Below the pieces are notes generated by a model that was not told where the DNA came from, ran no database searches, and saw only the letters and a list, made by a program, of their open reading frames with translations. Of a stretch of 64,000 nt of DNA, positions 6,515 through 64,000 are shown piece after piece. Numbering within the stretch: position 1 is the stretch's first letter; each line of letters begins with the position of its first letter. The translations under genes and the position numbers were made by a program. Origin of the DNA: Squalus acanthias (lineage: Eukaryota); contig CM059432.1 in the NCBI GenBank assembly GCA_030390025.1, positions 20,462,001-20,526,000 of the forward strand, written 5' to 3'.

Positions 6515-7100
6515 ATCAGGAAATGGCCATCTCCAACAAGAGAGAGTCTAACCACCTCCCCATGACATTCAATGGCATTACCATCGTCCACTCCCCTACC
6601 ATCAACATCCTGGGGGTCACCACTGACCAGAAACATAACTGGACCAGCCACATAAATGCTGTGGCTACAAGAGCAGGTCAGAGGCTGAGTATTCTGCAAA
6701 CTCCTGACTCCCCAAAGCCTTTCCACCATCTACAGGGCACAAGTCAGGAATGTGATGGAATACTCTCCACTTGCCTGGATGAATGCAGCTCCAACAACAC
6801 TCAAGAAGTTCTACCACACAGAAGGACAAGGGCAGCAGGCGCACGGGACACCATCACCTGCAAGTTCCCCTCCAAGTTACATACCATCCTGACTTGGAAA
6901 TATATCACCGATCCTTCATCGTCGCCAAGTCAAAGTCCTGGAACTCCCTCCCCAACAGCACTGTGCGAGTACCTTCACCATATGGACTGCAGCAATTCAA
7001 GGCGGCAGCTCACCACCACCTTCTCAAGGGCAATTAGGGATGGGCAATAAATTCTAACCTTGCCAGCGATGTGCACATCCGGTGAATGAATACATTTTTT
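6515..7100 (+). mobile_element. 3' fragment of a second CR1-group LINE family (family 2), internally deleted
   Basis: TINILGVTTDQKHNWTSHINAVATRAGQRL..SFIVAKSKSWNSLP; similar to 57868-60290. Confidence 0.85.
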
Positions 7101-13886: not shown

Positions 13887-15308
13887 CTGATTATGATTTT
13901 CCAAATGCCCTGCTACTGCTTCCTTAATGAAGGACTCCAGCATTTTCCCAATGACAGACGTTAAGCTAACTGGTCTATAGTTTCCTGCTTTCTGTCTCCC
14001 TCCTTTCTTAAATAGGGGTGTTACATTTGCGGTTTTCCAATCCGCTGGGACCTCTCCAGAGTCCAGGGAATTTTGGTATATTGCAACCAATGCATCCACT
14101 ATCTCTGCAGCCACTTCTTTTAAGACCCTGGGATAAGGTGCCACATAAAAGGTTACTGCACAAGATAAGAGCGCACAGGGTTGGGGGTAATCTATTGGCA
14201 TGGATAGGGGATTGGCTAACTAACAGAAAACAGAGAGTCAGGATAAATGGGTCATTTTCCAGTTGGCAATCAGTAACTAGTGGGGTGCCACAGGGATCAG
14301 TGCTAGGGCCTCAACTATTTACAATCTATATTAATGACTTGGATGAAGGGACCGAGTGTACTGTAGCCAAATTTGCTGATGATACAAAGATAGGTGGGTT
14401 AGCAAGTTGTGAGGAGGACACAAAGAATCTGCAAAGGGATATAGATAGGTTAAGTGAGTAGGCAAAAATTTGGCAGATGGAGTACAATGTGGGAAAATGT
14501 GAAGTTATCCACTTTGGAAGGAAGAATGAAAAAGCAAATTATTATTTAAATAGGGTGAGACTACAAAATGTTGCGGTACAAAGGGATCTGGGGGTCCTAG
14601 TACATGAAACACAAAAAGTTAGCATGCAGGTACAGGAAGTAATCAAAAAGGCTAATGGAATGTTGGCCTTTATTGCAAGGGGTATGGAGTATAAAAGTAG
14701 GGAAGTTTTGATGCAACTTTACAGGGCGCTGGTGAGACCGCACCTGGAGTACTGCGTACAGTTTTGGTCTCCATATTTAAGGAAGGATATACTTGCATTG
14801 GAGGCAGTGCAGAGAAGGTTCACTAGGTTGATTCCTGGGATGAAGGGGTTGACGTATGATGAAAGGTTGAGCAGGTTGAGCCTATACTCATTGGAGTTTA
14901 GAAGAATGAGAGATGATCTTATTGAAACATATAAGATTCTGAGGGGGATTGACAGGGTGGATGTTGAGAGGATGTTTCCCTTCGTGGGGGAATCTAGAAC
15001 TAGGGGGCATAGTTTCAGAATAAGGGGTCGCCCATTTAAGATGGAGATGAGGAGGAATTTCTTCTCTCAGAGGGCCGTGAATCTTTGGAATTTTCTACCC
15101 CAGAGAGCTGTGGAGGCGGAGTCATTGAATATATTCAAGGCAGAGATTGACAGACATTTGAACTACAAGGGAGTCAAGGGGTATGGGGAGAGAGCGGGAA
15201 AGTGGTGTTGAGGCGAAGATTGGATAAGCCATGATCTTATTGAATGGTGGAGCAGGCTCGAGGGGCCGATTGGCCTATTCCTGCTCCTGTTTCTTATGTT
15301 CTTATGTT
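13887..15308 (+). mobile_element. CR1 LINE, 5'-truncated with an inverted 5' segment
   Basis: 13887-14133 codes [15 protein letters not shown] on the minus strand. 14131-15308 codes DKVPHKRLL to the C-terminus on plus (in-frame TAG at 14459-14461) and ends in the TTCTTATG tail. Confidence 0.9.
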
Positions 15309-16627
15309 ACCGTACTCACTCCGAGCACAGTTCCCCACTGGGGGCACAGAAGTGCTGAAATGATCTTTATACGTCAACTCGCAAAACTGTTACTGGATAT
15401 ATATGCTTTAGGTTTCTCGGCAATCTGCTGCTGAAACTCGCAGTTCCTCAGCTGGCCATTATGCTGTAGTACAGGTTTCTATTGGAAATTATGAAATCTT
15501 GCACAACTGTTGTTCTTCTGTAAGTTCTTGTTAATAAAATAATGAAATCACTGAAGTGATTAAAAAATGGCAAGTGGTACAGAACAATATGAGATCCTTT
15601 TTCGAATTGATGAGTATTCAAATGAAATAGCATGGGCTAGTCACACAAGGCTTGGGTTGTCTGTAAGGGGAAGCTTGGAGCTATCAAGTTGAACATGTTG
15701 TGTCATGCAGAGAACCTCAGAGCTTGAAATATCTGTTGGGGAAAGCTTCAAGTTGTTGACTCGAGCTCCAGAAAATACAAATCATGATGCCTAGAATTTA
15801 CTGATCCATGAGGTTTAAGGAAGTCATCTGCAAAAGAGATTATATTGAGAAAGAAGCTTGTTTTTTATTGGAGTTCTGGTGGAATATCATGGCCCGGATT
15901 TTGCGATAGGAATACTGGTGAGGCTATCAACAGTCACTGTTATTATGGAGTAAATCGGACAGCAACTTCTGGCATCCACACATGCGCAGTTAAATGCAGA
16001 AATCCGGAAGTTGTTGTCCGATTTGCCCTGCTCCTCCACAAGCTTCGCTACACTGGTACCTCACCGAGAGATTTGGCATTAAAACACATGAAGGTGCAGT
16101 ACTTACCCATTAGTTACCCACTAAACATGTCAGAAAAAGTTGGGGCTAGTGGATTCAGGTGTAAGTGAATTTTTAATGGCATTATAAGTATTAATTACTG
16201 CCAAACAACCTCTCTGGCCCTGAAAATTTAATTTTACAAGTGTGGAGTCTCGTTCCTTCAGAATGTAATTATTGTTGGAGATTCAAAATTAAAATGAAAA
16301 TAAAAACATTTTTTATTTTTCTTTCTGTTGCTTTTATCTCTATTTCCTAATCTCATCTTTCTTTCTCTTTATTTTGTTTTCTATACATGATTTTACATTG
16401 AATTAAATATTCGAATTTATACTTCCTGGTTTAGACGCTGCGGCCAGAATTTTCTGGGGTCTGTGCGGATGCAATCGGAGGCGGGTCAGGTGGGAAATTT
16501 GCAATATCTTGGAGCAGGTCGGAAACCCACCATCATCCGGCCCCTACGCACCTTTCCCTCGGGTGTGTTTGCTGGCGCGGCAGCGACCCGAACAGCAGAG
16601 GCGGGCGAGCTAATTTAAATCATTATA

Positions 16628-17148
16628 GGTGATGGAATACTCTCCACTTGCCTGGATGAGTGCAGCTCCAACAACACTCAAGAAGTTCGACACCATCCAG
16701 GACAAAGCAGCCCGCTTGATTGGCATCCCATCCACCACCTTAAACATTCACTCCCTCCACCACTGGTGTACCGTGGCTGCAGTGTGTACCATCTACAAGA
16801 TGCACTGCAGCAACTCGCCAAGGCTGCTTCAGCAGCACCTCCCAAATCCGCAACCTCTTCCACTTAGAAGGACAAGGGCAGCAGGCGCATGGGAACACCA
16901 CCACATCCAAGTTCCCCTCCAAGTCACACACCATCCTGACTTAGAAGTATATCGGCGATCCTTCATCGTCGCTGGGTCAAAATCCTGGAACTCCATACCT
17001 AACAGCACTGTGGGAGTACCATCACCATACGGACTGCAGCGGTTCAAGAAGGCAGCTCACCACCACCTTCTCAAGGGCAACTAGGGATGGGCAATAAATG
17101 CTGGCATTGCCAGCGACGCCCTGATCCCATAAACGATTTTTTAAAAAG
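16628..17148 (+). mobile_element. Family-2 CR1-group LINE 3' fragment inside element A
   Basis: ORF 16629-17084 (MEYSPLAWMSAAPTTLKKFDTIQDKAARLIG..SWNSIP) followed by the family tail. Confidence 0.9.
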
Positions 17149-17509
17149 GTACTTGTCAGGCCTTTAAGAGTCTTTTTAACCCTGCCATTCAACTTTCCCT
17201 GGATGACCACGGGAAACACGCAGCTCGGGAACCATATCTGTCAACTTGAGGCAGAAGTTGAGTGGCCACTGATCCAGCTGATGAGTGCACAGCATGGAAA
17301 GTACAATAAAAACTCCCACCTTACAGCTGATCACTTTCCTCAGGCAGAAGCTGTTGCTGACTGCATTGCCAGCACAGATTTAGCTTTCTAGAGGCTGCAA
17401 GTGTTTGCAGCAAAGTTGCCATCCAGTCTCACCTCATTGTTCGAACCTATCACATCATTGACAGATCGCTTCTGTCATCTCTACTTGACCTGCCAGCTAT
17501 TCCGTCAAC

Positions 17510-18752
17510 AAGGTTGCCATTTATACTGTCTCACCTTGGTCCTCAGAAACTGACCACGATGAGCCCCAACTCCAGCAGCACCAGGCACACCAGCAGCACC
17601 AACAACAACGCCACCAACCTTTTCCTCAACCACCTGATGTTGCACAGGACAGAGGGCATCAGCACAGGGCTGCACCGCGCCAGAGGCCATACCCCCAACA
17701 CAGGGTATACAGGCAGAGGATGAGCTTCCTCAGCATGACTGAGCAGCAGTGCCAAAGGAGGCTCAGGCTATCGCGCCAGGTCGTCACAGACATTTGCAAA
17801 TTGCTGGAACAAGACCTGCAGCCCAGAGGAATGGGTGGACACTCCTTACCAGTGGCTGTCAAAGTCACCAGCGCCCTCATCTTCTTCACTTCAGGCTCTT
17901 TCCAGGGATCTGCAGCAGACATTTGCGGCATCTCACAGTCAGCCACCCACAGATGCATCACACAGGTCACCGATGTCCTATTTGCCAAGTCAGCCAATTA
18001 TATCAACTTTGCCACAGATGAAGCCAGTGTTAGTGAGCGTGCACTCAGCTTTGCCACTCTGGCTTGCTTCCCACGGGTGCAGGGTGTCATTGATTGCACA
18101 CATGTGGCCATAAGGGAACCCCATCATAACCCAGGAGTGTTTGTCAACCGCAAGGGCTTCCACTCCCTCAATGTGCAGCTCGTCTGCAACCATAGGAAGA
18201 TCATCATGCATGTGTGCACCAAATTCTCTGGCAGCTGCCATGACTCTTTCGTCCTGTGCCAGTCCACCCTCCTTCAGCTCTTCGTTCCTCCAAACAGACG
18301 TTCCGGCTGGCTGCTTGGAAACAAGGGCTATCCACTGACGACGTGGCTCATGACATCCTTGAGGAGGCCAAATACTGAGCCCCAGGAGACAAAAAATGAA
18401 AGCCACATCTCCACCAGATGTGTCATAGAGCAGACAATAGGCATACTGGAAATGTGCTTCAGATGCCTTGACAGATCTGGAGGAGCCCTTCAGTACGCAG
18501 CAGCCAGGGTCTCCAGAATCGTTGTGGTCTGCTGCACCCTGCACAACACAGCACAGCAGCGAGGATTTAGCGCTGCATGAGGAGCAAGGCACTGAACACA
18601 CAGCTTCTTCTTCTTCAGAGGAGGAGGAGCATCAGCTGGAAGACGAGGAGGAGGAGGAGCAGGAGGAACCTGCAGTCCAGATCCCACCAGCACCTAAGCA
18701 ACTTACTGCCCGGGAGGCCAGGGACGGGCTCATCATGACCAGATTTACTTAA
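17510..18752 (+). pseudogene. Harbinger transposase (HARBI1-like DDE nuclease), inactivated
   Basis: ORF 17720-18580 has [40 protein letters not shown] and VIEQTIG. The frame is open upstream through a Q/H-rich leader (likely start ATG>AAG at 17510). A frameshift near 18565 detaches the acidic tail ending at 18752. Catalytic GD reads GN. Confidence 0.9.
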
Positions 18753-19051
18753 CATTATGCAGTACACCCATATGGCTGCCACATGCTGCGCCAGGTTGAC
18801 ACCACCCCACAGCAACACCATAAAGCATCCCTACAATGACCAAGCCATTCCTTTCACACTGACCACCATTGCGAGAGGTAACGTTATGTGTCACCATTCA
18901 CTCCAACTCACTAAGCCACTTCCAAAGGTGCACACAAATTTGTCCAAGACCGGAAAGTGGTGAAAATAAAGATTTTTATGTGCGGTATCACAGTAATGGA
19001 AACTTTACAGAAACATTGAATAAAACACCTAACTGGCTACCCTTGTGAATC

Positions 19052-20952
19052 TACTTGTGTGTCATCATTCTCTTACGCGTGCTTCTACGAGGTGCTACCC
19101 CTGTGGCTTCAGCAGAGGTAGAGGCAGCCTGCTCACTTCAGTGCTGCTTAGACACTCTTGGCGGACCTCCTCTGGGGTTTGGAGCCTCTGATGGCCCCGC
19201 CAAAGTCTGCTCCTCCTGCGACTGTGCAGGGGCAGACTTGGCCATTTCTGTCCTAGGAGGCATCTGGGGCTCTGACTGAGGGGATGGCAACAGGAGAGAA
19301 GTGTGAGCGCTTTGAGAGGAGCCCCCACTTCCATGTACCCTCTCACCATCATCTCTCTCATGGGCCACCCACACTTCCCTGCTAGCAAGGGGCTGGAGGG
19401 CACCTTGCTGCACATCAGTTGGCCATGAGGACCCATGTCTACATTGACATCCCTCCTTGAGAGGAGGTCTATGAGCCTCTGCCATCTATTCTCCATAGAT
19501 AGCCATCTATCCTCCATAGATAGCCATCTATTCTCCATAGAGACCATGTGCTCCTGTGAGTGATGCATTAGCTGCTCCATGCAGGGTCCATCCTATCTAT
19601 GGAAGAGCCTACAGTCACCATCGCCTGCGACACGGTGTTACTCATGTTGGAGATGGACTCCTCCATTTTCTGCACATTTGCAGACATCGCGCTCGCGCTG
19701 TCAAAGCCTCCTGCACTTCTTGCTACGCCTCCAGGAACACCCACTTTCTGGATGGCCCCCGAGGCTCAGCGTCTGCATGCAGCTGAGCAGAGCTGGGAGC
19801 GTCCTGCGCCCTCTGGCGAGGAGTCTCCACTGCTGTCCCTGTCTCCACCATCTGCTCTTGATCACTTGTGACTTGTGAGACACCAGGTGACCAAACTACA
19901 TTATCTTGTGTGGAACCCACTGAGGTGTGCATATCTGCGCTGGTGCTGGGTGCGCTTATGTCTGGTGATGGTGCGCCCTCAGAGGCTGGAGGCTCCTCTG
20001 AGGAGTCATCTTCCTCTTCGTCCTGGACAGTAGGGGGGAGGGGGTGGGGGGGAGCTCTTGAACGACCTGTGGGAGAGTAAAGAGATGAGTTAGATATGTC
20101 ATGAAAAATGGGTACAGATACCATTATGCACATTATCACCATTCACTGGCTGCTGACATCAGTCCCCATATGAGTGACGGATGTATGCCATGTAGCTGTA
20201 TGATATGTAATTCTGTCACCAGGCTGTTGAGATGTCCCCCTCTCTCCATCTCCCACCTCCAGCTGCTCGGTGACTCCTGAAACTTCTAAGGCTGCCTCCT
20301 CTGCTGTTGTTAGGGTCGCCAATGATGGCGTTCCACCTCCAGTTTTCTCCCTCTCCCTCTTATTGTGGGCTCTCTTTTCCTGCAAGGAGGGAATGTAGAG
20401 AAGGTTGAGTGAGAGTGATGGAATGAGTATAAGGAATGGATGGGTTACATCTTTAGAGGGAGGCTATGATGGAGTGGGGTGCCAAAGCCAAGTGACCTCC
20501 TTGTGTGTTGTTAGTTGGTATGATTTCATTAGGATGAGGGTAGTGTGAGGGGTGGCTAGTCAGATGGGGATGTGCGTGTGTAGCTAGAGAGAGAGGGATG
20601 TGTGGACATGTTAGTGTGAGTAAGGATGTGCAGGAGCAGGGTTGGGAAGGCAGGGTGATGGGGATGTGATGAGAGGCACAGCAGGATGGAGTTGAGTGTG
20701 ACTTTGTACTCACCTTTCCTGATCTAATGAGACCATTGAAACCTTTCCGGCACTGCACCCAGGTCCTCCTCACCACATCCCTGCTGTTCACCTCCTCTGC
20801 AATTTAGAGCAAGCTCTTTTGGTCTCCTGGGGAGGTCTCTTCCACCCATTAGAAGGGAAGAGGACCTCCCTGTGTGCTCTGATTCCCTCCACAAGCACAT
20901 GAAGGGAGTTATGGGAGAATCTGGGTGCAGCCCTCTGTCTCTGTGTAGTCAT
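19052..20952 (-). pseudogene. Three-exon Myb/SANT-like (trihelix) DNA-binding gene of element A, disrupted
   Basis: Exon 1 20952-20714 (APRFSHNSLHVLVEGIRAHREVLF..RTWVQCRKGFNGL, frameshifted, donor GTGAGT). Exon 2 20379-20220 (EKRAHNKREREKTGGG). Exon 3 from 20066 with stops and frameshifts. All introns are GT-AG. Confidence 0.85.
19481..19543. repeat. 21-bp tandem repeat x3 within the Myb gene
   Basis: GCCATCTAT(T/C)CTCCATAGA(T/G)A x3; encodes SMENRWL/SMEDRWL on the minus strand. Confidence 0.9.
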
Positions 20953-21398
20953 CTCTGGAAATGTTTGCAGCAGTCTAATTGTGCAGTGTGCTGCCTGCAC
21001 ACTCCTAGCTGAACCTTCAGATGCAATGTGGCCATGGCTCCTTTAAATATCCCGGCTGAAAACGCGTCATCGATGAGGTCATCAGACCCGCACCATTTAC
21101 TAGGGCCGGGTAATGCGCAGGGCGGGCTTAATCGGCCCCATTAATGCAAAGTCGATTTCAGGAGCGGGATGGAATCAACAACGGGGTCGCGACCCACCAC
21201 GCCGACCGCCCGCACACGACCCGCCCAGGTAAACAAAATTCCGGCCTGCGTGTCTCAGTGAGGATTCTTCATTCTGATTGGTTGAAGAGACACGCTGTTG
21301 GTTGCTCTGTTCACACGTGCCGCAGATCCCCTGTAGAGGATGCCGCGCTGGAAAGGACCTCGAGTAACTGTAAGTTGATGCTGAAAAGCCCACAAGAA

Positions 21399-24076
21399 GG
21401 GCTGGATTTTCTCTGCGGAGGCAGGATGGCTGATTGCTGGGTTCCGGTCCTGCTCCCGGCTGCAGCCGCTCTGTCAAAGGGATTTTCCCTTGATTGGCCT
21501 TGTTAAGCCCGCCCTGCGGGCTTCCCAGCCAATTAACAGGAAGCGGGTCTGATGACGTCATTTGATGACGCGTCATCAGTCGGTTTCCTTAAAGGGACCA
21601 TGGCCACATTGAGTTTGACAGTTGTTCTGTCAGTGTTTTACAGCATTGAGGTGCTGCAAACACTGACAAGCACTGCACAAAGGTGCACAGCTGTACCCAG
21701 GCTCTCCCATGACTCCCTCCATATGCTTATGGAGGGAGTCACAGCACGCAGGTAGGTTATCTTCCCTTCCAAGGGTGGAAGAGACCTCCCCAGGACACCA
21801 ACGCAGCCTGGTTGCACATTTCACAGGAGGGCAAAAGCAGGGATGTTGTCAGGAGTCCCTGGCTGCAGTGGCGCCAACCTTTCAATGATTTCAGTGGATC
21901 ACGAAACGTTACTGCAAAGCCACACTCAAACTCACCCTGCTTGCCACTCAACACATCCCCATCACTCTGCCTTCCATACCCTTCTCCTGCACATCCTTAC
22001 ACCAACTTACCTTGCACCTCCACCCATCTCTCTCTATCTACATTATCACATCCCCATCTCACTAGCCACCCCTCACACTCACCCTCATCCTAGTCCAATC
22101 ATACCAACGAACAACACACAAGGGTAGGCACTTGAGAGGTTTAGCCAATGTTCATGTGAAGTTTCTGGTAATGTGTTGTCATACAGTGAAATCTATTTTT
22201 CCAACACTGCCCCTTATTGGACAGATCTGTGCGCACCTTGAGAAGTGTCTTACTGAGTTCCAGTGAATATTGAGACATAACTTCCCCCCGCCACCCGCAC
22301 CGCCCCCCCGCCCCTACCCCCCTCCCCCCGCTATAGTGATGAGTGTGCATGGAATGGGTTAGACATTAAAGGGATGCTTTATGGTGCTGGTGTGGGATGG
22401 TGTCAACCTGGCGCATCATGTGGCAGCCAGGGTTTACAGCATCAAGTGAAGAAAGTCTGGCCATGGTGATGCCATCGCTGGCCTCCCGGGCAGCAATGTT
22501 GTCAGGGGCTGATGCCCTGTGTCCTGTGCAGCATCAGGTAATGGCGGAGAAGTTTGGTGTTGTTGTTGGTGATGTTGGTGTTGGGGCTGATCATGGGAGG
22601 ATTCAGAGGAGCAAGGTGAGATAGTTTCAAGGGCACCGATGTAGCTGCAATAAATGGCAGCTGCAGGTGAGATGACAGAAGCGATCTGTCAATGGTGAGA
22701 GAGGCTGTTCCAATGAGGTGGCACTGGACAACCAGTTGGCTCTAAACACTTGCAAGCTAAAGAAATCTCTATGGGGGAAAGATTCAGTTGGTTGCGCCTC
22801 CCGTTAGCGCCTTAAGAGGGCGCTAATGGGGCGCAAATCATCTAGCGCCCAGGCGCGGCGATGTTTGCGCTGCTCACGAAATTAACTAGACACTTTGCGG
22901 CGGTGCTAAACACTACCGCCACGATCTCATGCGCCGGCAGATCGTGACGTCAGTCGAGTGCGCAACGCCCCGGTATCGCTCCGGAGCGGATATTGAGTGG
23001 CGCCCCCTGCCTGACCGCCTGACGCTAGCAACAACATGTTGAGGGGAGCGTTTTGCAGTCATGAAGTTAACTGGGGGAGCGCTATTTAAAGGCGACCGCT
23101 TCCTGCCTTTTATTGTTGGTGCCATTTTTGAACCACGCATTCTGAGAGAGAGGGAGAGAGTCTTCTGGAGAGATTCAACGCTGTGTGAAGGAGTTTTGGG
23201 TACTGAGCAGCACTTTGCAGGTTCATTTTGATTTGCCATTCCTTGTATCGATTTAGAAGAGACTGTGGGGGCTGCACTCTGAGCTCTTTCCCTGGTACTC
23301 TCCATTGTTCTTTCCAGCAGATTTGATGTGCAGGTCTCTCCAGGCCGAGATTCAAGGCTGCAATGAGCAGGATGTGGATGGAAAGCAAGATCAACCATCC
23401 CCTTTAAGAACTGGCCCGTGCCATTGTGTGTGTGTTCCGTTGCTGACTGACAGCACATGAGCTTCGCCAGCGCTCTGAGGTAGCGCCTCGCTCCTCGGCC
23501 TTTGCGCCTTAAGACAGGTGTGAAGCACCTGATTTAGCGCTCCAATCACCTCCAGGGGTGATAAAAGTCAAGTTTGCAGTCGGTGGCGATAATTAGCACC
23601 AGGCGCTAATCTTTGCGCCCGGCCGATAATTGCGCCCCAAATGGGGCAATACTGAATTTCTCCTCCTATATGTCTTACGAATGCAGTAACCAACAGTTTC
23701 TGCACTCTGAAACTGAACATCTGCAACATGGCATCCTTTACAACATTTCTGCAGCTGTCAGCTTCTCAGATACATCAAAGCAGACTCAACTCACGCCAGG
23801 GTGAGCTGGCGTGTTCCCCGAGCAGCAAGTAACCCGTGAGGGAGCACGTAAAATTGGAAGGTAGCCGCAAAATAGCATTAAATTGGCTCTTAACAAGCCA
23901 TTTAATGAGCTCAATTGTCTCCCCCACCGCTTGGTGTCGGGTCAGTTCTCCGCAGACAAACCCAACACCTGGGAGACTCGCGTGGAGGCAGGTAGGAAAC
24001 CCGCTGTCAATCATTGCTATTTTGACAGCGGACCCGCCTCCAAACCCGCCCTCTGAGCGCCGGCAAAATCCAGCCC
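21399..24076 (-). mobile_element. Internally deleted Harbinger (element B), opposite orientation to A
   Basis: Perfect 12-bp TIR GGGCTGGATTTT/AAAATCCAGCCC, TSD GAA. Keeps a decayed Myb exon 1 on + (~21670-21910). 22480-22770 is an inverted match to the nuclease leader of A (~17390-17670). Confidence 0.9.
22773..23666. mobile_element. Harbinger-type MITE nested in element B
   Basis: Imperfect TIR GGGGGAAAGATTCAGT/ACTGAATTTCTCCTCC, TSD TAT; same family as 1-296. Confidence 0.88.
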
Positions 24077-24158
24077 GAAGTCTTTGGACAGATGTAAGCA
24101 TAATGAACAGTGAGCGTCGTTCCTTCGCCACTGACCACAAAATCCGGGCCAATATGAT

Positions 24159-24900
24159 GGCCCAAAAATTTGTGTTGATACGCGAGAGTACGCACTGTGT
24201 ACTCTCGCGTATTCTGTCTCCAATTGCCGGTTTTCTGCATGCACTGCGCATGCGCTGAAAACCAGCACTTGGTGAATGGAAAAGGGGGCGGTTCCTAGGT
24301 GAACCGCGTGCGCGCTACAGGCTGCGCGCATGCAGTGCACTTAGTGGTTTCAACGCGCAGGTAAGTATGGAAGATATTACACATAAAAAAAGGAGGTGTA
24401 AGACCCACTTTTAACAAGGTAAGTAGTGAATTAAGTATTATTTTGAATTTTTTTTAACAGGTATATCTTTTTTAGAGACTTTAAAGACAGGTAAGTTTAT
24501 TTTTATAACTTTTTAAAAGATTTTAAATTTTTTCAAAAATTAATTTTTTATTTAAAATGGTTAATTTATTTAACTATACTTATTTTATTAATGTGATGGT
24601 TTTTTTTTAAATTTAATTGAGGTTTAGCTGTTCTTTTGGGGGGCTATAGTATTCATAGCTTTCACAGCACTTATGTGAAAGTTATGAATGGAAGATGGTG
24701 TGCTGCCATTGGCTCTAACTGAGTCACGTGATCCCACAGCTCGCACGAATTAACTGCGCCTGTGGGATACGCAAGCCCAGCACAGCAGCTGTCCAGAACA
24801 TCAAGTTCGTGCGAGCTGGAACTGAAAAAGCCAACGCGCAGTGAGAGATCGCGGGGAAGCCTTACCCTCGCACGAAGGCTTCCTCACGAATTTTTGGGCC
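24159..24900 (+). mobile_element. Harbinger-type MITE (hairpin family)
   Basis: TIR GGCCCAAAAATTTGTG/CACGAATTTTTGGGCC (15/16), GC-rich ends, AT-rich core, 14-bp subterminal hairpin. The TSD is not preserved. Confidence 0.85.
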
Positions 24901-25625
24901 TGTATCTTTTCGGTGGGGGAGGTTAGTGTTAATTGCAATATATCATTAGTTAGTGGAAATGGTGCTTTGATGCGTTAAATTTGGAGTGAAGAAAGAATTT
25001 TACTGTTCTGAAAGTGAGAAGAACATTTTCAAGTGCTATCAATGGAGATGACAACAGGTTTAAAAGGGTTTAGTTGAAACACAGGCTAGATACCAGTTTG
25101 ATTCAAAACCTGAATTCATTTATCCATATCTACCCACAATTAATTTGATAGTCCCCTTTAAACAACTGAAATTTAATTTTAAATACAATGAATTAAAGCA
25201 CATTTTATAATCATTTTTGATTAATTTGAGCCCTTTAGATGTATTTCTAGTGATGTCATTGATTTTATTTTGATGGTTACCAACATTACCAACACCTTGA
25301 TTCAGTTCTGAAAGGCATCGACAGCACTAAATAGGGTGAATAATAAATCTGGAATAATGGACGTGAGGGTATATTACAGACAAAGAAGTAGTATCAGGCT
25401 GGTTTAGATGTCATTCAAGCACATGTTTCCATGCTGTAAATTATTTTCCATTATTTGTTAATGTTAATGCACAAGCCAGTTTGAGTAGAAGGTCAATACC
25501 AATGAGGGTTCACAGTAATTTCTGTTCCATTAATCCACTTTCAATTAGGGTGATTGGAAGTTATAGTTGCACAGATCCAAACATGGTTGTAGCAATCCGT
25601 GTCTGTCTGTGGTTGCACTGATATT

Positions 25626-26391
25626 GGCACAGAAATTTGCCTCTCCGGCTTGCCGCGGGGGTAAGGATCGTGCGCGCACTTAACTACCGCGCCTGCCGTT
25701 GTGTTTTGGGCCCACGGGAACTTCAGCTCCTGGTCCTGCTCCAAGAGTCGGCGCGCAGTGCTTGCGTGTCCCAGGGGCGCAGTTAGTGCGATGCGTCCCC
25801 TGGGATCACATGGGCCATGGAGAGCCAATGGCAGCAGACCATCTTTCATTCATAGATTTGACAGGAAGAGCATGTCAAATCTGTGAATTGAAATCGGCCC
25901 CAAAAGAACAGCTAAACTTAAAATAATTTTTTTTAAAAACCATCACATTTATAAAATAACTATAGTTAAATAAATTAACCACTTTAAACAAAAATTAAAT
26001 TTTTGAAAAAATTTAAATACTTTTTAAAAGTGATAAAAATAAACTTACCTTTCTTTAAAGTATCTAAAAATGATAAACCTGTTGAATTTTTTTTTAAATT
26101 ATACTTAATTAACCACTTACCTTGTTGAAAACGGCTCCTGCGCCTCCTTTTTATAAGCGTAGGTTCTTCACTACTTACCCTCCCGTAGAAACCTGAAAAA
26201 AAATCTAAGTTCGCTGCGTGCGCGCAGCCTCTACCGCGCACGCGGTTCACCTAGGAACCGCCCCCTTCACCAGACCGGAAGTTCCGGTTTCCCGCGCATG
26301 CGCAGCGCATGCAGGAAACTGGCACTTTGGGACACATTATGGGTGAGTACACAGTGCGTACTCACCCGGCAAGGGCCTGAATTTTTGGCCC
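25626..26391 (-). mobile_element. Harbinger-type MITE, inverted relative of 24159-24900
   Basis: TSD ATT and imperfect TIR. 26200-26390 matches the reverse complement of 24159-24360. Confidence 0.85.
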
Positions 26392-27158: not shown

Positions 27159-27928
27159 GGGCCGGATATTCCGATCCCTACGGGTGTGTACGAGGTGCAT
27201 ACACACCCGTAGGGGCCTTGCAAGTGCTAGTTTCAGGCATGCAAAGCGCATGCGCTAAAACCCAGCACTTCCGATCTGTCAAGAATCCTCTTGACAGATC
27301 ATCCGCCTGCCCGGGAGAAGGGCCTCCGCGGGCAGGGAGTTCTGCTTTCTGCACAACCTCCGCCCGCTGAAAACCTTGAAAAAGCTTACGCCTGGTAAAA
27401 GCATGTGTAAGGCCTGCTTTTACCAGCATAAGAGTTTAAAAAAATTAAAAAAAAAAATTTTTTCACTCATTTATAATTTAAAAATACTTTTAAAAGAGGT
27501 AAGTTTATTTTTAGCCCCGTAAAAAACTTTAATTATTTTCTTCAAAAAAATAAATTTCTGTTTAAAATATTTAATTTAATGTAATTTTAACTAATTTTAA
27601 ATACGTGATTTAAAATGTTTTAATTTAATGTTTAACTGTGTTTTTAAATGTGATCCCCATTCATACTTTTGACAGATCTATGCGGAGAGACCTGTCAAAA
27701 GTGTGAAGGGGGATTCCCTTCTTTGATTGGTTCCCCATGACCCACGTGATCTCAGGGGTGTTTGTGAACCGCATGCGCCCCTGGGATACCTGGGCCTCTG
27801 CACGCGCGGACCAGGAGAGGCCCAGGCTCGGAAGAGTCGGGAGCTACAGAGCCAGCAGGTACGTTTGTAGATTTTTTCTGATCAGAGGCATCCGCATGCA
27901 GGAAGTCTCCGATCGGAAAATCCGGCCC
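27159..27928 (+). mobile_element. Harbinger-type MITE (hairpin family)
   Basis: TIR GGGCCGGATATTCCGATC/GATCGGAAAATCCGGCCC (17/18), TSD ATT, 15-bp subterminal hairpin. Confidence 0.9.
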
Positions 27929-28230: not shown

Positions 28231-28875
28231 ATCCTTTTCTATGGTTTCAAATGCTTAATATCGGTGGTTGCAAGAGATTTAGTGCAGGTAAGCATGAATC
28301 GATCTTCCCTGTGGCTTGCCATTTCTACCTCTCCCCCCCACCTCCCCGCCCCCCCCTGCCTCGCCCCCTTTCTCATTCTACCTTTTTATTTTTGTCTTTC
28401 TATGCAATTCTACCCAATCTCAATGAAACGGATTTTGAAATCCATCCATGCGTGAAATCTGGAACTTGCGGCCTGTCAACATACGCGTTGACAAGCCATC
28501 CGCGCAGGTCACGAAAAAGCAATCGCTGGCGCAGAGTTGATTTGACCTTTGTACAGTACATCACTTTACAATCCTTTCCACTATTCTAAAATCTGTTCCT
28601 ACTAGACTACGAAACTAATTAGCTGCAGTTAATAGATTTGAATTGTTGAATTCTGCCTATTTTTCTCCCCCCTCCTCTCCCTCTGTGTTGTATAGGCCCG
28701 GTCCTGATGTGATATTAAGCTGATTAAAGGGGGCTTCTCAAGTTTGATTTTGCCAGTTTTATTGGCGGGTCACACCCAAAACTTATTTTGCCCTTTTTTG
28801 CATGCTGATGAAAATATTACACATTTGCATCATTTTTTTTAACTTCAGATATTTTGCATTTCTGAAAATGGTTTT

Positions 28876-30157
28876 ACGAAAGGGAAATCATGTTTAACAA
28901 ATTTGCTGGCGTTCTTTCAGGATGTAACAAGCAGGGTGGATAAGGGTGAGCCAGTGGATGTGGTATATTTGGATTTCCAGAAGGCATTCGATAAGGTGCC
29001 ACATAAAAGGTTACTGCATAAGATAAGGGCTCACGGAGTTGGGGGTAATATATTAGCATGGATAGAGAATTGGCCAACTAACAGAAAGCAGAGAGTCAGG
29101 ATAAATGGGTCATTTTCCGGTTGGCAAACGATAACTAGTGGGGTGCCACAGGGATCAGTGCGGGGGCCTCAACTATTTACAATCTACATTAATGACTTGG
29201 ATGAAGGGACCGAGTGTAATGTAGCCAAGTTTGCGGATGATACAAAGATGGGTGGGACAGCAAGTTGTGCAGAGGACTCAAAGAATCTGCAAAGGGATAT
29301 AGACAAGCTAAGTGAGTGGGTAAACATTTGGCAGATGGAGTCTAATGTGGGAAAGTGCGAGGTTATCCACTTTGGCAGGAAAAATAAAAAAGCAAATTAT
29401 TATTTAAATGGAGAGAGATTACAAAATGCTACAGTTCAGAGGGACCTGGGGGTCCTTGTGCATGAAACACAAAAAGTTAGCATGCAGGTGCTGCAAGTAA
29501 TCAAAAAGGCAAATGGTATGTTGGCCTTTCTTGCAAGTGGGTTGGAGTATAAAAGCAGGGAAGTCCTGCTACAACTGTACACGGTATTGGTGAGACCACA
29601 CCTTGAGTACTGCATACAGTTTTGGTCTCCTTATTTAAGGAAGGATATACTTGCATTGAGGCAGTTCAGAGACGATTCACACGGTTGATTCCTGAGATGA
29701 GGGGGTTGACTTATGAAGAAAGGTCGAGCAGGTTGGTCCTATACTCATTTGAATTTAGAAGAATGAGAGGTGATCTTATTGAAACATATAAGATACTGAG
29801 GCGGCTCGACAAGGTAGATGCAGAGAGGATGTTTCCCCTCGTGGGGAAATCTAGAACTCGGGGGCATAGTCTCAGAATAAAGGGTCGCCCTTTTAGAACT
29901 GAGATGAGGAGGAATTTCTTCTCTCAGTCGGTCGTAAATCTGTGGAATTCTCTGCCCCAGAGAGCCGTGGAGGCTGGGTCATCAAATACATTTAAGGTGG
30001 AGATAGACAGATTTTTACAAGATAAGGGAGTGAAGGGTTATGGGGAGCGGGCAGGGAAGTGGCTTTGAGCCCAAGATCAGCCATGATCTTATTGAATGGC
30101 GGAGCAGGCTCGAGGGGCCAAGTGGCCTATTCTTGCTCCTATTTCTTATGTTCTTAT
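28876..30157 (+). mobile_element. CR1 LINE 3' fragment (RT domain to tail)
   Basis: ORFs 28903-29688 and 29622-30068 are joined by a frameshift; FADD motif and TTCTTATG tail. Confidence 0.93.
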
Positions 30158-30571
30158 GATATTCACAGCTTGATCTTTCTGCTGAATCCACCTATCGAAG
30201 GATGGTATCATCCACATTCAATTTTGCACATTTTGCAAGATTTCTATAAACAAAGACCTCAAGCTTGAAGTTGAAGATGGTAACAATGATTTTTTGAAAG
30301 AGGATGGCTTCAGTGAGCATTGGCTTGCTGTGGATGGGAACATCAGGAGTTGAATCAATCTTGACTGTCCTTCCATATTTCACAACTGGTCATTTATAGA
30401 CAACCTCACCAATTTTATTGAAGTTCCCATTATAAAATTATTTTTCACTGAGCTTTAGGTTCTTGTGCAATCATTACAAGATCAGACAACTGATGTGTAG
30501 ACCTGGATATTCCTCAAACAGCATAACTGTCAAGTAATACCAAAATTTATGCCAACCTTCCTGTTGCTACC

Positions 30572-30808
30572 TTCTCAGGATTGCTACCAGTGCCACGTGC
30601 TAGTCAGAGTAGAAATAGAAGGATATTTCAGATGAATACATGGCTAGAGGAATGGTGCAAGGGGGAGGGATTCAAATTCCTGGGACATTGGAACCGGTTC
30701 TGTGGGAGGTGGGACCAGTACAAACTGGACGGTTTGCACCTGGGCAGGACCGGGACTGATGTCCTAGGGGGAGTGTTTGCTTGTGCTGTTGGGGAGGGTT
30801 TAAACTAA
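30572..30808 (+). pseudogene. CR1 ORF1 C-terminus (SGNH-esterase-like domain)
   Basis: LLPVPRA..MNTWLEEWCKGEGFKFL..DGLHL (DxxH motif). Confidence 0.85.
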
Positions 30809-33801
30809 AAGGGCAGGGGGATGGGAACCTGTGCAGGAAGACAGAAGAAAGGGAAGCAAGGATAGAAGCAAAAGACAGGAAGGAGAAAAGCAAAAGTGGC
30901 AGTCAGAGAAATCAAGGGTGTAAATCAAACATGGCCACAGTAAATAATAATTCTAAACGGTCTAAGAGTGTTAAAAAAACAAGCCTGAAGGCTTTGTGTC
31001 TTAATGCGAGGAGCATTCGTAATAAGGTGGATGAATTGGCTGCGCAAATAGATGTAAACGGATATGATATAATTGGGATTACGGAGACGTGGCTCCAAGG
31101 TGACCAAGGCTGGGAATTCAACATCCAGGGGTATTCAATATTCAGGAGGGACAGGCAAAAAGGAAAAGGAGGTGGGGTAGCATTGCTGGTTAAAGAGGAG
31201 ATTAACACAATAGTAAGGAAGGATATTAGCTCTGATGATGTGGAATCTGTATGGGTAGAGCTCAGAAATACCAAGGGGCAGAAAACGTCAGTGGGAGTTG
31301 TATACAGACCCCCAAACAGTAATGCTGAGGTTGGGGATGGCATTAAATGGGAAATTAGAGATGCGTGCAATAAGGGCACAGCAGTTATCATGGGTGACTT
31401 TAATCTACATATAGATTGGGCTAACCAAATTAGTAACAATACTGTGGAGGAGGAATTCCTAGAGTGTATACGGGATGGTTTCCTTGACCAATATGTCGAG
31501 GAACCAACTAGAGATCAGGCCATCTTAGACTGGGTATTATGTAATGAGAAAGGATTAATTAGCAATCTTGTTGTGCGAGGCCCCTTGGGGAGGAGCGATC
31601 AAAATATGATAGAATTCTTCATTAAGATGGAGAGTGAAGCAGTTGACTCAGAGACTAGGGTCCTGAATTTAAATAAAGGAAACTACGATGGTATGAGGCG
31701 CGAATTGGCTAGGATGGATTGGGGAACGTTACTTAAAGGGTTGATGGTGGATAGGCAATGGCAAACATTTAAAGATCGCATGGATGAACTACAGAATTTG
31801 TTCATCCCTGTTTGGCATAAAAATAAAACAAAAAAGGTGACTCAACCATGGCTGACAAGGGAAATTAGGGATAGCATAAGATCCAAGGAGAGGACATATA
31901 AATTGGCCAGAAAAAGCAGCAAACCTGAGGATTGGGAGCAGTTTAGGATTCAGCAAAGGAGGACAAAGGGATTAATTAAGAGGGGGAAAATAGAGTATGA
32001 GAGTAAGCTTGCAGGGAACATAAAAACTGACTGTAAAAGCTTCTATAGATATGTGAAGAGAAAAAGATTGGTGAAGTCAAGCGTAGGTCCCTTGCAGTCA
32101 GAATCAGGGGAATTTATAATGGGAAACAAAGAAATGGCAGACCAATTAAATACATACTTTGGTTCTGTCTTCACAAAGGAGGACACAAATAACCTCCCAG
32201 AGATGTCGGGGAACATAGGGTCTAATGAGAGGGAAGAACTGAATGAAATCAGTATTTGTAGGGAAATGGTGTTAGGGAAATTGACGGGATTGAAGGCCGA
32301 TAAATCCCCAGGGCCTGATAATCTACATCCTAGGGTACTTACGGAAGTGGCCCTAGAAATAGTAGATGCATTGCTGATCATCTTCCAACATTCCATAGAC
32401 TCTGGAACAGTTCCCATGGATTGGAGGGTAGCTAATGTAACCCCACTATTTAAAAAAGGTGGGAGAGAGAAAACGGGGAATTATAGACCGGTAAGCCTGA
32501 CATCGGTAGTGGGGAAAAAGCTAGAGTCCATTATAAAAGATGTAATAGCAGAGCACTTGGAAAACAGTGACAGGATCGGACAAAGTCAACATGGATTTAC
32601 AAAAGGTAAATCATGCCTGACTAATCTACTGGAATTTTTTGAGGATGTAACTGGTAGAATAGATAAGGGAGAACCAGTGGAGGTGGTGTATTTGGACTTT
32701 CAGAAGGCTTTCGATAAGGTCCCGCATAAGAGATTGGCATGCAAAGTTAAAGCACATGGGATTGGGGGTAAGGTACTGACTTGGATAGAGAACTGGTTGG
32801 CAGACAGGAAGCAAAGAGTTGGAATAAACGGATCTTTTTCCGAGTGGCAGGCAGTGACTAGTGGGGTACCGCAGGGATCGGTGCTAGGACCCCAGTTATT
32901 CACTATATATATTAATGATCTAGACGAGGGAATTAGATGTAATATCTCCAAGTTTGCAGACGACACAAAGCTGGGTGGGCGTGTGTGCTGTGAGGAGGAT
33001 GCAGAAAAACTCCAGTATGATTTGGACAAGTTGGGTGATTGGGCAGATGCATGGCAGATGCAGTATAATGTGGATAAATGCAAGATTATCCACTTTGGTG
33101 GCAAAAACAGGAAGGCAGATTATTATCTGAATGGCAATAGATTGGGAAAAGGGGAAGTGCAACGAGACCTAGGAGTCCTTGTGCACCAGTTGTTGAAGGT
33201 AAGCACGCAGATGCAGCAGGCGGTTAAGTAGGCAAATGGTATGTTGGCCTTCATAGCGAGAGGATTTGAGTACAGGAGCAAGGATGTCTTGCTGCAGTTG
33301 TACAGGGCCTTGGTGAGACCACACCTTGAGTATTGTGTGCAGTTTTGGTCACCTTATCTGAGGAAGGATGTTCTTGCCATGGAGGGAGTGCAGCGAAGAT
33401 TCACCAGACTGATACCTGGGATGGCAGGAATGACGTATGAAGAGAGATTGGGACGATTGGGCTTGTATTCGCTAGAGTTTAGAAGAATGGGAGGGGATCT
33501 CATTGAAACTTATAAAATTCTAACAGGACGAGACAGAATAGATGCAGGAAGGATGTTCCCGATGGCGGGGGAGTCCAGAACCAGGGGTCACAGTCTAAGG
33601 ATAAGGGGTAAGCCATTTAGGACTGAGATGAGGAGGAATTTCTTCACCCAGAGAGTGGTGAACCTGTGGAATTCTCTACCACAGAAGGCAGTTGAGGTCA
33701 ACTCATTAAATATATTCAAGAAGGAGTTAGATATATTTCTGAGGCTAAAGGGATCAAGGGATATGGGGAGAAAGCAGGGACAGGGTACTGAATTTGGATG
33801 A
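30781..33801 (+). pseudogene. CR1 ORF2 (APE endonuclease + reverse transcriptase)
   Basis: [36 protein letters not shown] and FADD motifs. One in-frame TAG at 33229-33231 and a late frameshift near 33740. Confidence 0.93.
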
Positions 33802-33920
33802 TCAGCCATGATCTCATTAAATGGCGGAGCAGGCTCGAGGGGCCGAATGGCCTACTCCTGCTCCTATCTTCTATGTTTCTATGTTGGCTACTTAAACTGA
33901 AGTTTCCTGAGAATCCCAGT

Positions 33921-34297
33921 TGGCCAGAATCTACTGTCAAAATAATGGTGAGGTTAACGGCGTTCACTGTCATTAATGTACAAAGCGCACAGCAACTTCA
34001 GGCGAGTGCAGATGCATAGTTAAACACGAAAATCCAGAAGTTGCTGTCCGAGATGCGCTGCTCCATCGATAACTTCACGAAAACAACACCTCACTGCCTG
34101 ATTCACCATTCAACTGCATTGAATAGCGTGAAGTTCCTGTACTTGCATGGTAGATGCAAACTAAACTCGCCATAGTAAGTTAGGGCTTGTCCATTTCAGT
34201 CAAGGTACCATTGTTAACGGTGTGATCAGTCTTAATCACTCCCAAATGAGGACAAGTCTAAAGAACAACGGGCGCCAGCTACAGTAAATTCTGGCCC
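33921..34297. mobile_element. Short Harbinger-type MITE related to the 15891 and 63003 family
   Basis: TIR (T)GGCCAGAATCTACTG/CAGTAAATTCTGGCCC; shares the CAGCAACTTC..AAATCCAGAAGTTG block. Confidence 0.8.
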
Positions 34298-49434: not shown

Positions 49435-49900
49435 TATTTTATTTATTCATTCATGGGATGTGGGTGTCGCTGCCAAGGCCAGCATTTATTGCTCATTCTG
49501 TCACTGGCAAGGCCTGCCCATCCCTTTTGTCCTTGAGAAGATGATGGTAGGCCTTCATCTTGAACCGTTGCAGGCTGTGTGGTGAAGGTGCTCCCACAAT
49601 GCTATTAGGTAGGGAGTTCCAGGATGTTGACCCAGCAATGATGAAGAAATGGCGATATACGTCCAAGTCAGAATGGTGCGAGACACGGAGGGGAACTTGG
49701 GTATGATGGTGTTCCCATGCACATGCTGCCCTTGATCTTCTAGGTGGTGGAGGTCGTGGGTTTGGGAGGTGCTGCCAAAGAAGCCTTGGTGACTTGCAGT
49801 GTAACCTGTAGACAGTACACACTGCAGCCACGGTGCGTCAGTGGAGGGAGCCACTTGCCACAGAAGACCCAGCCTCTGACATGCTTTAATAGCCCTGGAA
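49435..49900 (-). mobile_element. Family-2 LINE 3' fragment
   Basis: AAVCTVYRLHC..FIIAGSTSWNSLPNSIVG. Confidence 0.85.
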
Positions 49901-53378: not shown

Positions 53379-53904
53379 CGTATAGGATAAGAGATGTTTA
53401 AAGTCATGAAGGAAATTGACAGGATAGCAAGGGAATGACTCCTCTCCAGTAGGGAAATCAAAAACAAGGTGACATAAGAATTTAGAATTCAAACTAAGCC
53501 AGTTAAAAATAAATCCAGGAAACAATTCTAAAATTGTACTTTCTTAATCCCAAACGCCTAGCCTTTGGCCCTCCAATAGTTCTGCAGCCATTGATCTTCT
53601 CAAATACTCTCTCACATCCACCTTTGATCCCCTTGTTACCAGCAAAACCTACTGGGCTAGAAATTCATTTCATAGCGCTCGATCTTTTAGCACTACGGGT
53701 GCCATATTTTGAAGAAAATGGCGTCCGCGCCGCGCGAGCGCACTTCTGCCGCGCCAGACACCACCTTGGTGAGGGTGTTAGCGTCGGCGCTGGGAGCCAG
53801 AAGTATGTAGAGTAGGCACATCGCGACATCAACCGTGTTCAGCACATCATGATGGTGAATGGTATCCTGGCAGCAGTCAGATGCTTTTATTCTGCGCCTG
53901 TCTG

Positions 53905-54475
53905 CTGTTCCTGCAGTCTTTTAGCTGCCAAGATAAACCAGAGCATGGCTACTGGGCGACAAGGGCTATCTGCTGACCACCTGGCTCATGACTCCACTCC
54001 ACAACCCAAGCACGTGTGGGCAGCATGCGTACAATGAGAGCCGTGCTGCCACACGGAATCTGATCGAGCAGACCATTGGCGTCCTTCAACAATGCTACTG
54101 CTGCCTGGCCCGCTCTGGAGGAGCCCTGCAGTACTCACCAGAACTCGTCTCAAGATCGGTCGTGGTCTGCTGCCTGCTCCACAACCTCGCCATCATGGGG
54201 GCACAGCCCTTGCCACCAGGCATACTGCGACCAGCTGAGGAGGAAGAGGAGGACGAAGAGGATGAGGAGGAGGACTGGAAGAGGAGGAGGAATGGAAGAG
54301 GAGGAGGAAGAAGAGGAGGAGGAGGAGGACTGGAAGAGGAGGAGGAGGAAGAGGACGAGGAGGAGGAATGGAAGAGGAGGAGGAGGAAGAGGTAGAGGAA
54401 GGGAGGAGGCAACCCAGACAGCTCCTTTCTGCATGGGCTGTCTGTGATCGACTCATCCAACTATGGTACAAGTAA
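53905..54475 (+). pseudogene. C-terminal half of a HARBI1-like nuclease
   Basis: WLLGDKGY..WLMTPLHNP..YNESRAATRNLIEQTIG..SGGALQYSP..CCLLHNLA, followed by an acidic tail. Confidence 0.88.
54237..54408. repeat. Imperfect (GAG/GAA)n purine repeat, an expanded poly-Glu tail
   Basis: Read directly; includes recurring GACTGGAAGAGGAGG and GAATGGAAGAGGAGG units. Confidence 0.9.
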
Positions 54476-54644
54476 ACGCATCCCCAATTCCCCATTCAAC
54501 AATAGTCCCACACCTTCCCTTCCCTCTGTTGCTGACCATCACAGCGTTCTCTTGGCCACAATGCTGAAATAAAAGCCACCAGAAAAGAAACATTCCAATC
54601 CAACTTTATCCATCAATCCATCCAATATTACATAACAAAGTCAA

Positions 54645-56540: not shown

Positions 56541-57329
56541 TGATTGTTCTTCACTCTCTTCCCCAGCCAGTTCAATGATCTGCTACAGGCAGAATGCACC
56601 TCCCCTTTAAGGGGTGCAGACTGCCTTTAAGTAGTGCAGGGTAGCTTTCCGTGCTGCTCGCCTCGCACGAACTTGTGCCCCCTGCTGAGTGTTCAGGCAC
56701 TCAGTCGTGCGTTCAGTGCTGGGCTGAATGCCACAATCATGGAAATCAGCAGGCGGCACAAGGTTCGCGGGCTGCCTGCATTCCTCTGAATGGACATGGG
56801 TTGATCGTGCGTCACCATCCCTGGGCCCGTTTTCGGGGGCAAACCAATTTCTAGTTGAACCCTTTACTATGGCGCCTCATCTTCGCTTCCTCAGGTCCAA
56901 GGGGCGTAGATTTAAGCGCATCTGATGCACAATTGGTTTTGCCATCCATCACCAGATCTAGCTGGGCCACTTCAAGTGCTATTTGGCCTAATTTCTGTGC
57001 CAAAACCATTCACAATTCCAGGAACATCCTGGAAAGTAAAGATAACCGCTGCCTTATTTTCTGCACTACCAACCGTCCCCTTAAACTCCTCCCTCTTGTC
57101 TACACCCTCACTTTTAATAGCGTGCGAGGTGCTCATGGCTGCTTTACCACTAAGATTGACTCAGCTGCTTTCCCCCTTCCTCTATCCCTAATCTCACACC
57201 AGGCTCCCTCCTGCCTTAACCAGCATCTCTCTTCAATTTCTCTCCTATATCCCCCAATGCCCTCTCTGAGATCACTGTGATTGAGACCCTCCATTCAGTT
57301 GTCTCAGCTGTTTTCCCAGTAAATAAAAA

Positions 57330-62910: not shown

Positions 62911-63002
62911 AATTGGCCAAATCAGCGCAGGAATGTCAAGTGCAAATTACGTCCAGCACAAATTGAGTTTCCGTGATCTTTTGCGCTAGTTTGAAAAACA
63001 TC

Positions 63003-63755: not shown

Positions 63756-64000
63756 ATTATGTTGGAAGCCGGCCCCGCCCACAAAACTGGCAATGTCCCC
63801 AGATCGAATTAATCACTATGCTGAGTTTTCGCTAATTGCGGGCCTTCGAGGAGGCTCTGAAAGTTAAGCTTTTTTTTTAGGCGCTGGGACACCAATAGAC
63901 ACTTTTTAAAAGGTTTTAAATATTTAAAAATATTTAATTTACTCAGAAACTGAGTACTGCATACTAATGAAACAAGTAAATGGTTCTGTATAGTTTGTTA

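Follow-up and report, generated by a model that had tools for sequence, protein, structure and literature searches.

A degraded full-length Harbinger copy from Squalus acanthias and its probable two-gene shark family

A stretch of 64,000 nucleotides from the shark Squalus acanthias (GenBank assembly GCA_030390025.1, contig CM059432.1, positions 20,462,001 to 20,526,000 of the forward strand), referred to here as the window, holds a full-length copy of a Harbinger transposon at 16442-21246. The best explanation, to which a probability of about 0.88 can be attached, is that this is a dead copy of a multi-copy, two-gene shark Harbinger family, whose ancestor would have moved by cut-and-paste with its own Myb protein and DDE nuclease. 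The copy supplies neither protein, so that it cannot mobilize itself; at most it could be moved in trans, since its terminal inverted repeats (TIRs) are near-intact. It is not an active copy, as the nuclease has probably lost its start, has the second catalytic Asp changed to Asn and carries a +1 frameshift, and the Myb gene is broken. A probably autonomous family ancestor is supported indirectly, because this Asp is kept in close proteins and family contigs lack several of the insertions and deletions (indels) present here.

The bounds of the element, its two TIRs and its target-site duplication (TSD) had been proposed in a preliminary description made from the sequence, and they are borne out by empty sites. 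Contigs of four public sequencing runs (X1, X13, X17 and X22) were aligned to the element region, and joints that skip 4,808 bases, that is, the element plus one TGC, occur in 3 contigs of X1, 17 of X13 and 1 of X17; orthologous and paralogous empty sites cannot be told apart in such joints. None was seen among the contigs of X22, an uninformative run that holds little beyond the part of the long interspersed nuclear element (LINE) described below (98 reads, 96 of them only partly aligned). The 12-bp TIRs agree at 11 of 12 bases and both ends begin with GG. The TIR-type motif occurs nine times in the window against 0.2 expected, a number reached in 0 of 100 shuffles. Five letters of the empty-site joint fit either side, which makes CTG or GCG registers formally possible; TGC was taken because only this register yields symmetric ends, and CTG, which would be a CWG duplication, was rejected because it makes the TIRs asymmetric by two bases.

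The observed/expected CpG ratio is 0.88 in the left subterminal region (16442-16626) and 0.92 in the right one (20953-21246), so about 0.9 at the element ends against about 0.3 or less in the nuclease and Myb genes. The CpG-keeping regions are possibly unmethylated, promoter-like ends. A TATA-like TTTAAA lies in the end on the Myb side, together with TGACGTCA-like motifs, which are also present in E2, an internally deleted, inverted relative lying close by (Table 1). A metagenome scan with the right TIR gave six loci, all discarded as chance matches of 19-20 bases devoid of further similarity.

The anatomy is that of autonomous-type elements of the PIF/Harbinger superfamily (PHIS): a DDE_Tnp_4 reading frame, a separate Myb/SANT gene, short TIRs starting with G and a 3-bp TSD. 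The nuclease had been described as an apparently single-exon gene with a Q/H-rich leader and an acidic tail, and so it is. The intron-free frame 17489-18580 matches DDE_Tnp_4 with an E value of 1e-33 over profile positions 1-158 of 158, and the tail runs past 18566 to a TAA at 18750-18752. The first catalytic Asp (18092) and the Glu (18428) are intact, and the second Asp is replaced by Asn at 18320. The codon at 17510 is AAG; since E2 aligns ATC-GGT-GCC there and several shark relatives start with MG, the loss of an ATG may fairly be inferred. One extra base at 18566 shifts the late frame and is missing from 42, 35 and 6 family contigs of X1, X13 and X17, respectively. In the predicted fold (mean predicted local distance difference test score, pLDDT, 72) the triad has the context expected of it: the first Asp would belong to a pair of strands, the second would follow a strand and the Glu would lie in a long helix. 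Weak rows of RNase H fold in the fold search (Metnase, ISCth4, piggyBac) were not used as evidence, and the two matches of a sequence search in the PDB were both due to chance.

These three lesions, start, GD to GN and late frameshift, had all been anticipated, but the accompanying statement that nuclease lesions are few must be given up. Set against 12 hand-picked close proteins, this copy stands alone at 16 of 294 core columns, seven of which are conserved in at least 70% of 120 homologues: the second Asp and the columns at 18227, 18356, 18380, 18392, 18449 and 18500. The second Asp is retained in 11 of the 12 close proteins and in 102 of 119 homologues overall; within the 12, the first Asp is kept in 7 and the Glu in 11. 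The CN motif, previously counted as a CD to CN lesion, is instead a trait of the lineage, as none of the 12 has D at this place (N in 9, K in 1, a gap in 2).

On the opposite strand, converging on the nuclease, a three-exon Myb/SANT gene with GT-AG introns (20713-20380 and 20219-20067) is predicted, in agreement with the earlier description. The two halves of exon 1 match PF13873 (Myb_DNA-bind_5) collinearly, at profile positions 2-26 (12.7 bits) and 44-70 (14.0 bits), and a read-through of the exon, with X at the break, is 34% identical to the PF13873 domain of the sawshark protein P0037 (E 9e-10). The DNA-binding domain is split by a frameshift near 20812 and an adjacent TAA. Exon 3 is interrupted by early stop codons at 19725 and 19140. 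Its reading frame also shifts near 19697 and 19420, where contigs show indels, and near 19590, a shift deduced from the frames only. The damage amounts to about four frameshifts and three stops, or some seven disabling lesions. Family contigs carry the bases missing here at 19420, 19697 and 20812; in X1 and X13, the extra bases at 19697 and 20812 are seen in less than half of the depth. The Myb gene of E3, a more distant Harbinger of the window, has GT and AG at the matching places and the same intron phases. Between the two stop codons, the AATAAA noted earlier near 18965 is accompanied by a second one at 19019; both are on the nuclease strand and are candidate poly(A) signals of this gene, and the 298-bp gap contains no TTTATT hexamer for a Myb transcript. 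A 21-bp triplication at 19481-19543 encodes the heptad-like repeat in the Myb tail, and one X1 contig has an extra unit.

Several results weigh against the reading of a two-gene family with a functional ancestor. Both half-matches to PF13873 are under its cut-off of 21.7, so that neither passes alone. No splice joint appears among the 15 of 2,866 contig joints listed. Homologue searches with the Myb exon-1 pieces of this element and of E3 returned no match, and an Atlas search for the Myb protein gave leads only, all below 0.9 (the best at 0.82, a Myb_DNA-bind_5 cluster at 0.75). At an E value of 0.001 or better, the fold search with the nuclease model came back empty. The 40 of 467 difference rows listed do not include the codons at 18320 and 17510; therefore, the evidence on the Asp rests on proteins of another species, most of them decayed. 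In addition, a tblastn search of 244 proteins against the Myb region had no match at E 1e-3.

Contigs of X1, X13 and X17 cover all 30 bins of the element region; summed contig depth is not a copy number. Five labelled organisms contain 35-44% of the sampled 31-mers, and no RNA run figures among the listed sources of these words. In X1, X13 and X17, 356, 352 and 383 of 5,491 places differ from this copy in at least 40% of the aligned depth, a divergence of about 6.5% in a count that includes the LINE and the flanks. In X1, 151 of the 356 differences are A>G or T>C, the direction expected of CpG decay in this copy, and the commonest identity class of contigs is 90-95%. Sharks change slowly, so a divergence of this order would correspond to many millions of years. 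The element is thus no complete blueprint, as had been proposed, given the 520-bp LINE, the Myb lesions and this divergence. The further idea of an active ancestor has indirect support, in that the Asp persists in relatives and several indels are absent from contigs; this copy itself is far from near-intact.

Among the 120 of 229 protein matches listed, the closest are shark proteins named 'putative nuclease HARBI1', including sawshark copies, with identities of up to 74-75%, and no homologue exceeds 75%. Trees were quick IQ-TREE searches of database proteins only, without Harbinger3_DR or the named Nuwa sequences, with midpoint roots and support from the Shimodaira-Hasegawa-like approximate likelihood ratio test (SH-aLRT) alone. 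In a tree of 145 rows, from which 4 of the 120 proteins were dropped for coverage below 75% and to which 28 representatives were added, the nuclease joins a clade (SH-aLRT 99) of 14 Pristiophorus proteins, which have long branches in a star-like arrangement and all look decayed. This clade sits within a radiation of cartilaginous fishes (SH-aLRT 97). A second tree, of 45 hand-picked proteins, included mammalian HARBI1 (P0165, named via its cluster), which is 37% identical and falls in a separate clade (SH-aLRT 97). Orthology to HARBI1 was therefore rejected on the identity, the clade, and the presence of TIRs and empty sites; nor is the lineage the sister of mammalian HARBI1.

It could be argued that the family spread non-autonomously, from a master copy already defective and moved in trans by a related Harbinger, in which case its consensus would show no active ancestor. 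Trans-mobilization did happen in this region, as the window is rich in MITEs (miniature inverted-repeat transposable elements) that share this TIR type; the decay of all 14 proteins of the closest clade and the N in the CD motif throughout the lineage point the same way, and the 40 of 467 difference rows listed give no direct view of the catalytic codon in the family consensus. This explanation is nevertheless unlikely, because most of the 12 close proteins have D, D and E at the catalytic positions (7, 11 and 11), the extra base at 18566 is missing from family contigs, which do contain the bases lost here at 19420, 19697 and 20812 (the last two at minority depth in X1 and X13), and the exon structure is retained in the distant E3. 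Slightly less probable still is that the family is recently or even now active in some shark and that only this copy is old. In X1, 12,573 of 160,070 aligned contigs are at least 99% alike, with the LINE and flanks counted, and one run, presumed to be of RNA, extends over all 30 bins. Its RNA label is only a guess and DNA may be included, the commonest identity class is lower, at 90-95%, and no listed protein among the 120 of 229 is above 75%. The proposal that these genes are a domesticated host pair like HARBI1/NAIF1, or its decayed remnant, draws on the database label 'putative nuclease HARBI1', on conserved, gene-like shark proteins in close sister lineages (P0006/P0007/P0261) and on the 35-44% of 31-mers found in five labelled organisms, but it is largely refuted, and has next to no probability, in view of the TIRs, TSD and empty sites, the lost start, frameshifts and stops in both genes, the long terminal branch, and a mammalian HARBI1 that is 37% identical and groups elsewhere (SH-aLRT 97).

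For the two-gene family, the closest known system is Harbinger3_DR of zebrafish (HARBINGER3_DR, NuwaI-2_DRer, of the NuwaI group), given in the accessible part of PMC4482050 as 4,204 bp with a 12-bp TIR and the domains DDE_Tnp_4 and Myb_DNA-bind_5. The shark element resembles it in size (about 4.2 kb), TIR length, both domains, a 3-bp TSD and the flanking arms of the target, and by eye in the C-terminal core (RCLDKSGG there, RCLDRSGG here). They differ in the TSD, which is CWG there and TGC here, in the TIR, which begins GGG there and GGCC here, and in the Myb protein, which at an inferred length of about 470 residues would be about twice the 221 residues of its zebrafish counterpart. According to the passages available, both Harbinger3_DR proteins are required, and its Myb protein, on which nuclear import depends, binds to the transposase as well as to the TIRs (PMC2836001, PMC9392472). 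By analogy, the ancestral Myb protein would bind the subterminal DNA as well as the TIR and bring the nuclease to the nucleus, where the nuclease would excise the element and reinsert it with a 3-base stagger. Rebuilding a vertebrate Harbinger has been achieved already with Harbinger3_DR, as stated in the accessible text of PMC2836001 and PMC3016246.

As to the named groups, size (4.2-4.5 kb), TIR length (12-61 bp) and domain pair fit NuwaI, but the TGC is not the CWG of that group. The main site reads C|TGC|G and fits the C|NNN|G of NuwaII (SENKUSHA1 / NuwaII_TRub), although it is not the typical C|TNA|G, the other elements of the window lack the flanking C and G, and the Myb domains of NuwaII are mostly Myb_DNA-bind_4 or _3, whereas that of the shark element is _5. 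PIF/Harbinger in the strict sense (Han et al. 2015) has TWA, again unlike TGC. The shark and ray entries named 'putative nuclease HARBI1' (Pristiophorus, Heptranchias, Heterodontus and others) are the best matches and share one clade with the nuclease; they are protein annotations only, with no element, TIR, TSD or Myb partner attached, and the gene models most probably represent copies of this family or of its sisters. The domesticated genes HARBI1/NAIF1 and MSANTD1-4, as presented in the accessible part of PMC9392472, belong to the same two protein families as those of the element, but HARBI1 is single-copy, 37% identical and groups with teleost and unnamed elements.

The presence of Harbingers in sharks is already known at superfamily level. 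The accessible text of Han et al. 2015, with Callorhinchus among its species, states PHIS elements to be absent from sharks (PMC4482050), and that of Etchegaray et al. 2022 reports none in the elephant shark and advises that more cartilaginous fish be checked. In the passages available, the whale shark genome paper records PIF-Harbinger as present and the grey reef shark genome paper names Tourist/Harbinger as the commonest DNA transposons, neither passage describing an element. Titles and abstract starts yielded no description of a shark Harbinger element, in a coverage that leaves out most subscription papers, and 'Harbinger' is absent from the main text of the Squalomix preprint, whose supplements may bear on the question.

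The copy itself is an ordinary fossil, whose value is that of a mapped template for a shark Harbinger family; the leads worth following are a pattern in its target sites and a set of candidate domesticated genes. Among ten hand-delimited TIR-bounded elements of the window, five have a perfect 3-bp TSD (TGC, GAA, ATT, TAT and ATT) and five do not. None of the five perfect duplications is TWA on either strand, and none is CWG. The palindromic target of Harbinger3_DR is given in the accessible part of PMC3016246 as AAACACCWGGTCTTT. When six-base flanks are compared with its arms, the total for the five elements whose TSD is perfect is 38 out of 60. Positions nearby yield 17.3 (0 of 200,000 draws), and a permuted consensus yields 19.7 (p 0.00025). 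For the remaining five elements the score is 29 (p 0.001 against positions nearby, 0.019 against the permuted consensus). In the 20 half-sites, A stands at -6, -5 and -4 in 13, 14 and 14 cases, and C or G at -3 in 13. The site of the main element scores 8 of 12 and is palindromic at 5 of 6 places, as are 0.6% of window positions. It counts against this argument that the test was post hoc, on ten sites of mixed families with hand-set ends and one site for the main family. More than the central triplet, it was probably the palindromic arms, some 4-6 bases outside the cut (AAA-S-A-C half-site), that guided target choice. A free triplet has precedents: 'NNN' is entered for two families tabulated by Han et al. 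2015, as far as accessible, one of them C|NNN|G (PMC4482050). Should the arm pattern recur in a large number of copies, it would show that vertebrate Harbingers can keep their 15-bp site preference even where the TSD is not fixed. Classification by TSD would then be weakened, and the pattern would be informative on how the two proteins divide the reading of the target, a matter relevant to tools for site-selective integration.

Several short-branch groups extend across shark or ray orders: P0006/P0007/P0259-P0261, P0022/P0025/P0051, P0123/P0264-P0268, P0027/P0030/P0262-P0263 and P0008/P0011. In most of them another residue stands in place of the catalytic Glu, and together they resemble a set of domesticated Harbinger transposase genes other than HARBI1. 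A broader proposal, put forward tentatively at a little under even odds, is that sharks harbor a large undescribed Harbinger radiation that kept the arms of Harbinger3_DR and freed the central triplet, and that was also the source of several mostly Glu-less domesticated genes (P0006/P0007/P0261, P0022/P0025/P0051, P0123/P0266 and P0027/P0030) mis-filed as HARBI1. With a freed triplet, this radiation would fit none of the PHIS groups defined by TSD, and a rebuilt protein pair would make it possible to tell apart, in Harbinger targeting, the recognition of the arms and that of the triplet. Beyond the sharks, a conserved bird and turtle 'putative nuclease HARBI1' (P0102, P0105-P0110, P0114, P0118, P0120) falls outside the group of mammalian HARBI1; the two members inspected have neither the first Asp nor the Glu, and the protein is likely a separate domesticated gene. 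One of these models is fused to an annotation of the copper chaperone CCS.

The element is itself nested, and nested into (Table 1). An empty host MITE, made by cutting out the Harbinger element and E2 by coordinates, matches, from one end to the other, the uninterrupted MITE at 62993-63765 (61% identity, E 3e-52); therefore, the Harbinger element inserted into a pre-existing MITE, which may account for the empty sites in many contigs. E2 inserted 149 bases away within the same host. The LINE fragment arrived after the Harbinger element, and other family copies are without it: the LINE-free joint 16626>17147 occurs in 7 contigs of X1 and 6 of X13, which skip exactly 520 bases. Conversely, LINE contigs extend beyond both insertion edges (loose ends at 16629 and 17121) and end in an A tail. 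Bases 16627-17146 are 81-93% identical to LINE copies at 6752-7069, 49515-49847 and 57874-58501, and an RVT_1 frame lies next to the copy near 58 kb. The order of events would be the host MITE, then the 4,285-bp element, and then the LINE fragment together with decay by CpG loss and indels.

Table 1. Coordinates of the Harbinger copy, its parts and the neighbouring repeats (window positions)
Feature	Position	Strand	Remarks
Full-length Harbinger copy	16442-21246		4,805 bp; 4,285 bp native without the LINE
Left TSD	16439-16441		TGC; arm AGACGC at 16433-16438; basis, empty-site joint
Left TIR	16442-16453	+	12 bp, GGCCAGAATTTT
LINE insertion, 5'-truncated 3' fragment	16627-17146	+	520 bp including a possible 4-bp duplication AGGT; A-rich tail
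Harbinger transposase pseudogene	17510-18752	+	Single exon; about 413 codons (inferred)
AATAAA hexamers	18965, 19019 (18965-19024)	+	Within the 298 bp that separate the two stops
Myb exon 3	19051-20066	-	Acidic, Ser/Pro-rich, then a heptad-like stretch
Myb intron 2	20067-20219	-	153 nt, GT..AG, phase 1
Myb exon 2	20220-20379	-	160 nt, open
Myb intron 1	20380-20713	-	334 nt, GT..AG, phase 0
Myb exon 1	20714-20952	-	ATG at 20952; Myb/SANT domain
Right TIR	21235-21246	-	12 bp, reverse complement GGCCGGAATTTT
Right TSD	21247-21249		TGC; arm GTGTCT at 21250-21255
Host MITE, older	15891-24150		About 770 bp; TIR 13/13; interrupted by the Harbinger element and E2
E2, internally deleted inverted relative	21399-24076		64-75% identity; TIR 12/12; TSD GAA
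MITE nested in E2	22773-23666		TSD TAT
E3, more distant convergent Harbinger	~53654-56857		Nuclease 3' part only, three-exon Myb gene
Further MITEs of the same TIR type	24158-24901, 25626-26391, 27159-27928, 33921-34297, 63003-63754		Four are 740-770 bp
LINE copies with endonuclease and reverse-transcriptase frames	30760-33885, 14012-15309, 28843-30172

The nuclease remnant of E3 matches DDE_Tnp_4 with an E value of 7e-14. The region from 15.9 to 27.9 kb is crowded, with five TIR-bounded elements and one nested MITE besides the main element, and the LINE at 30760 is open over 823 codons.

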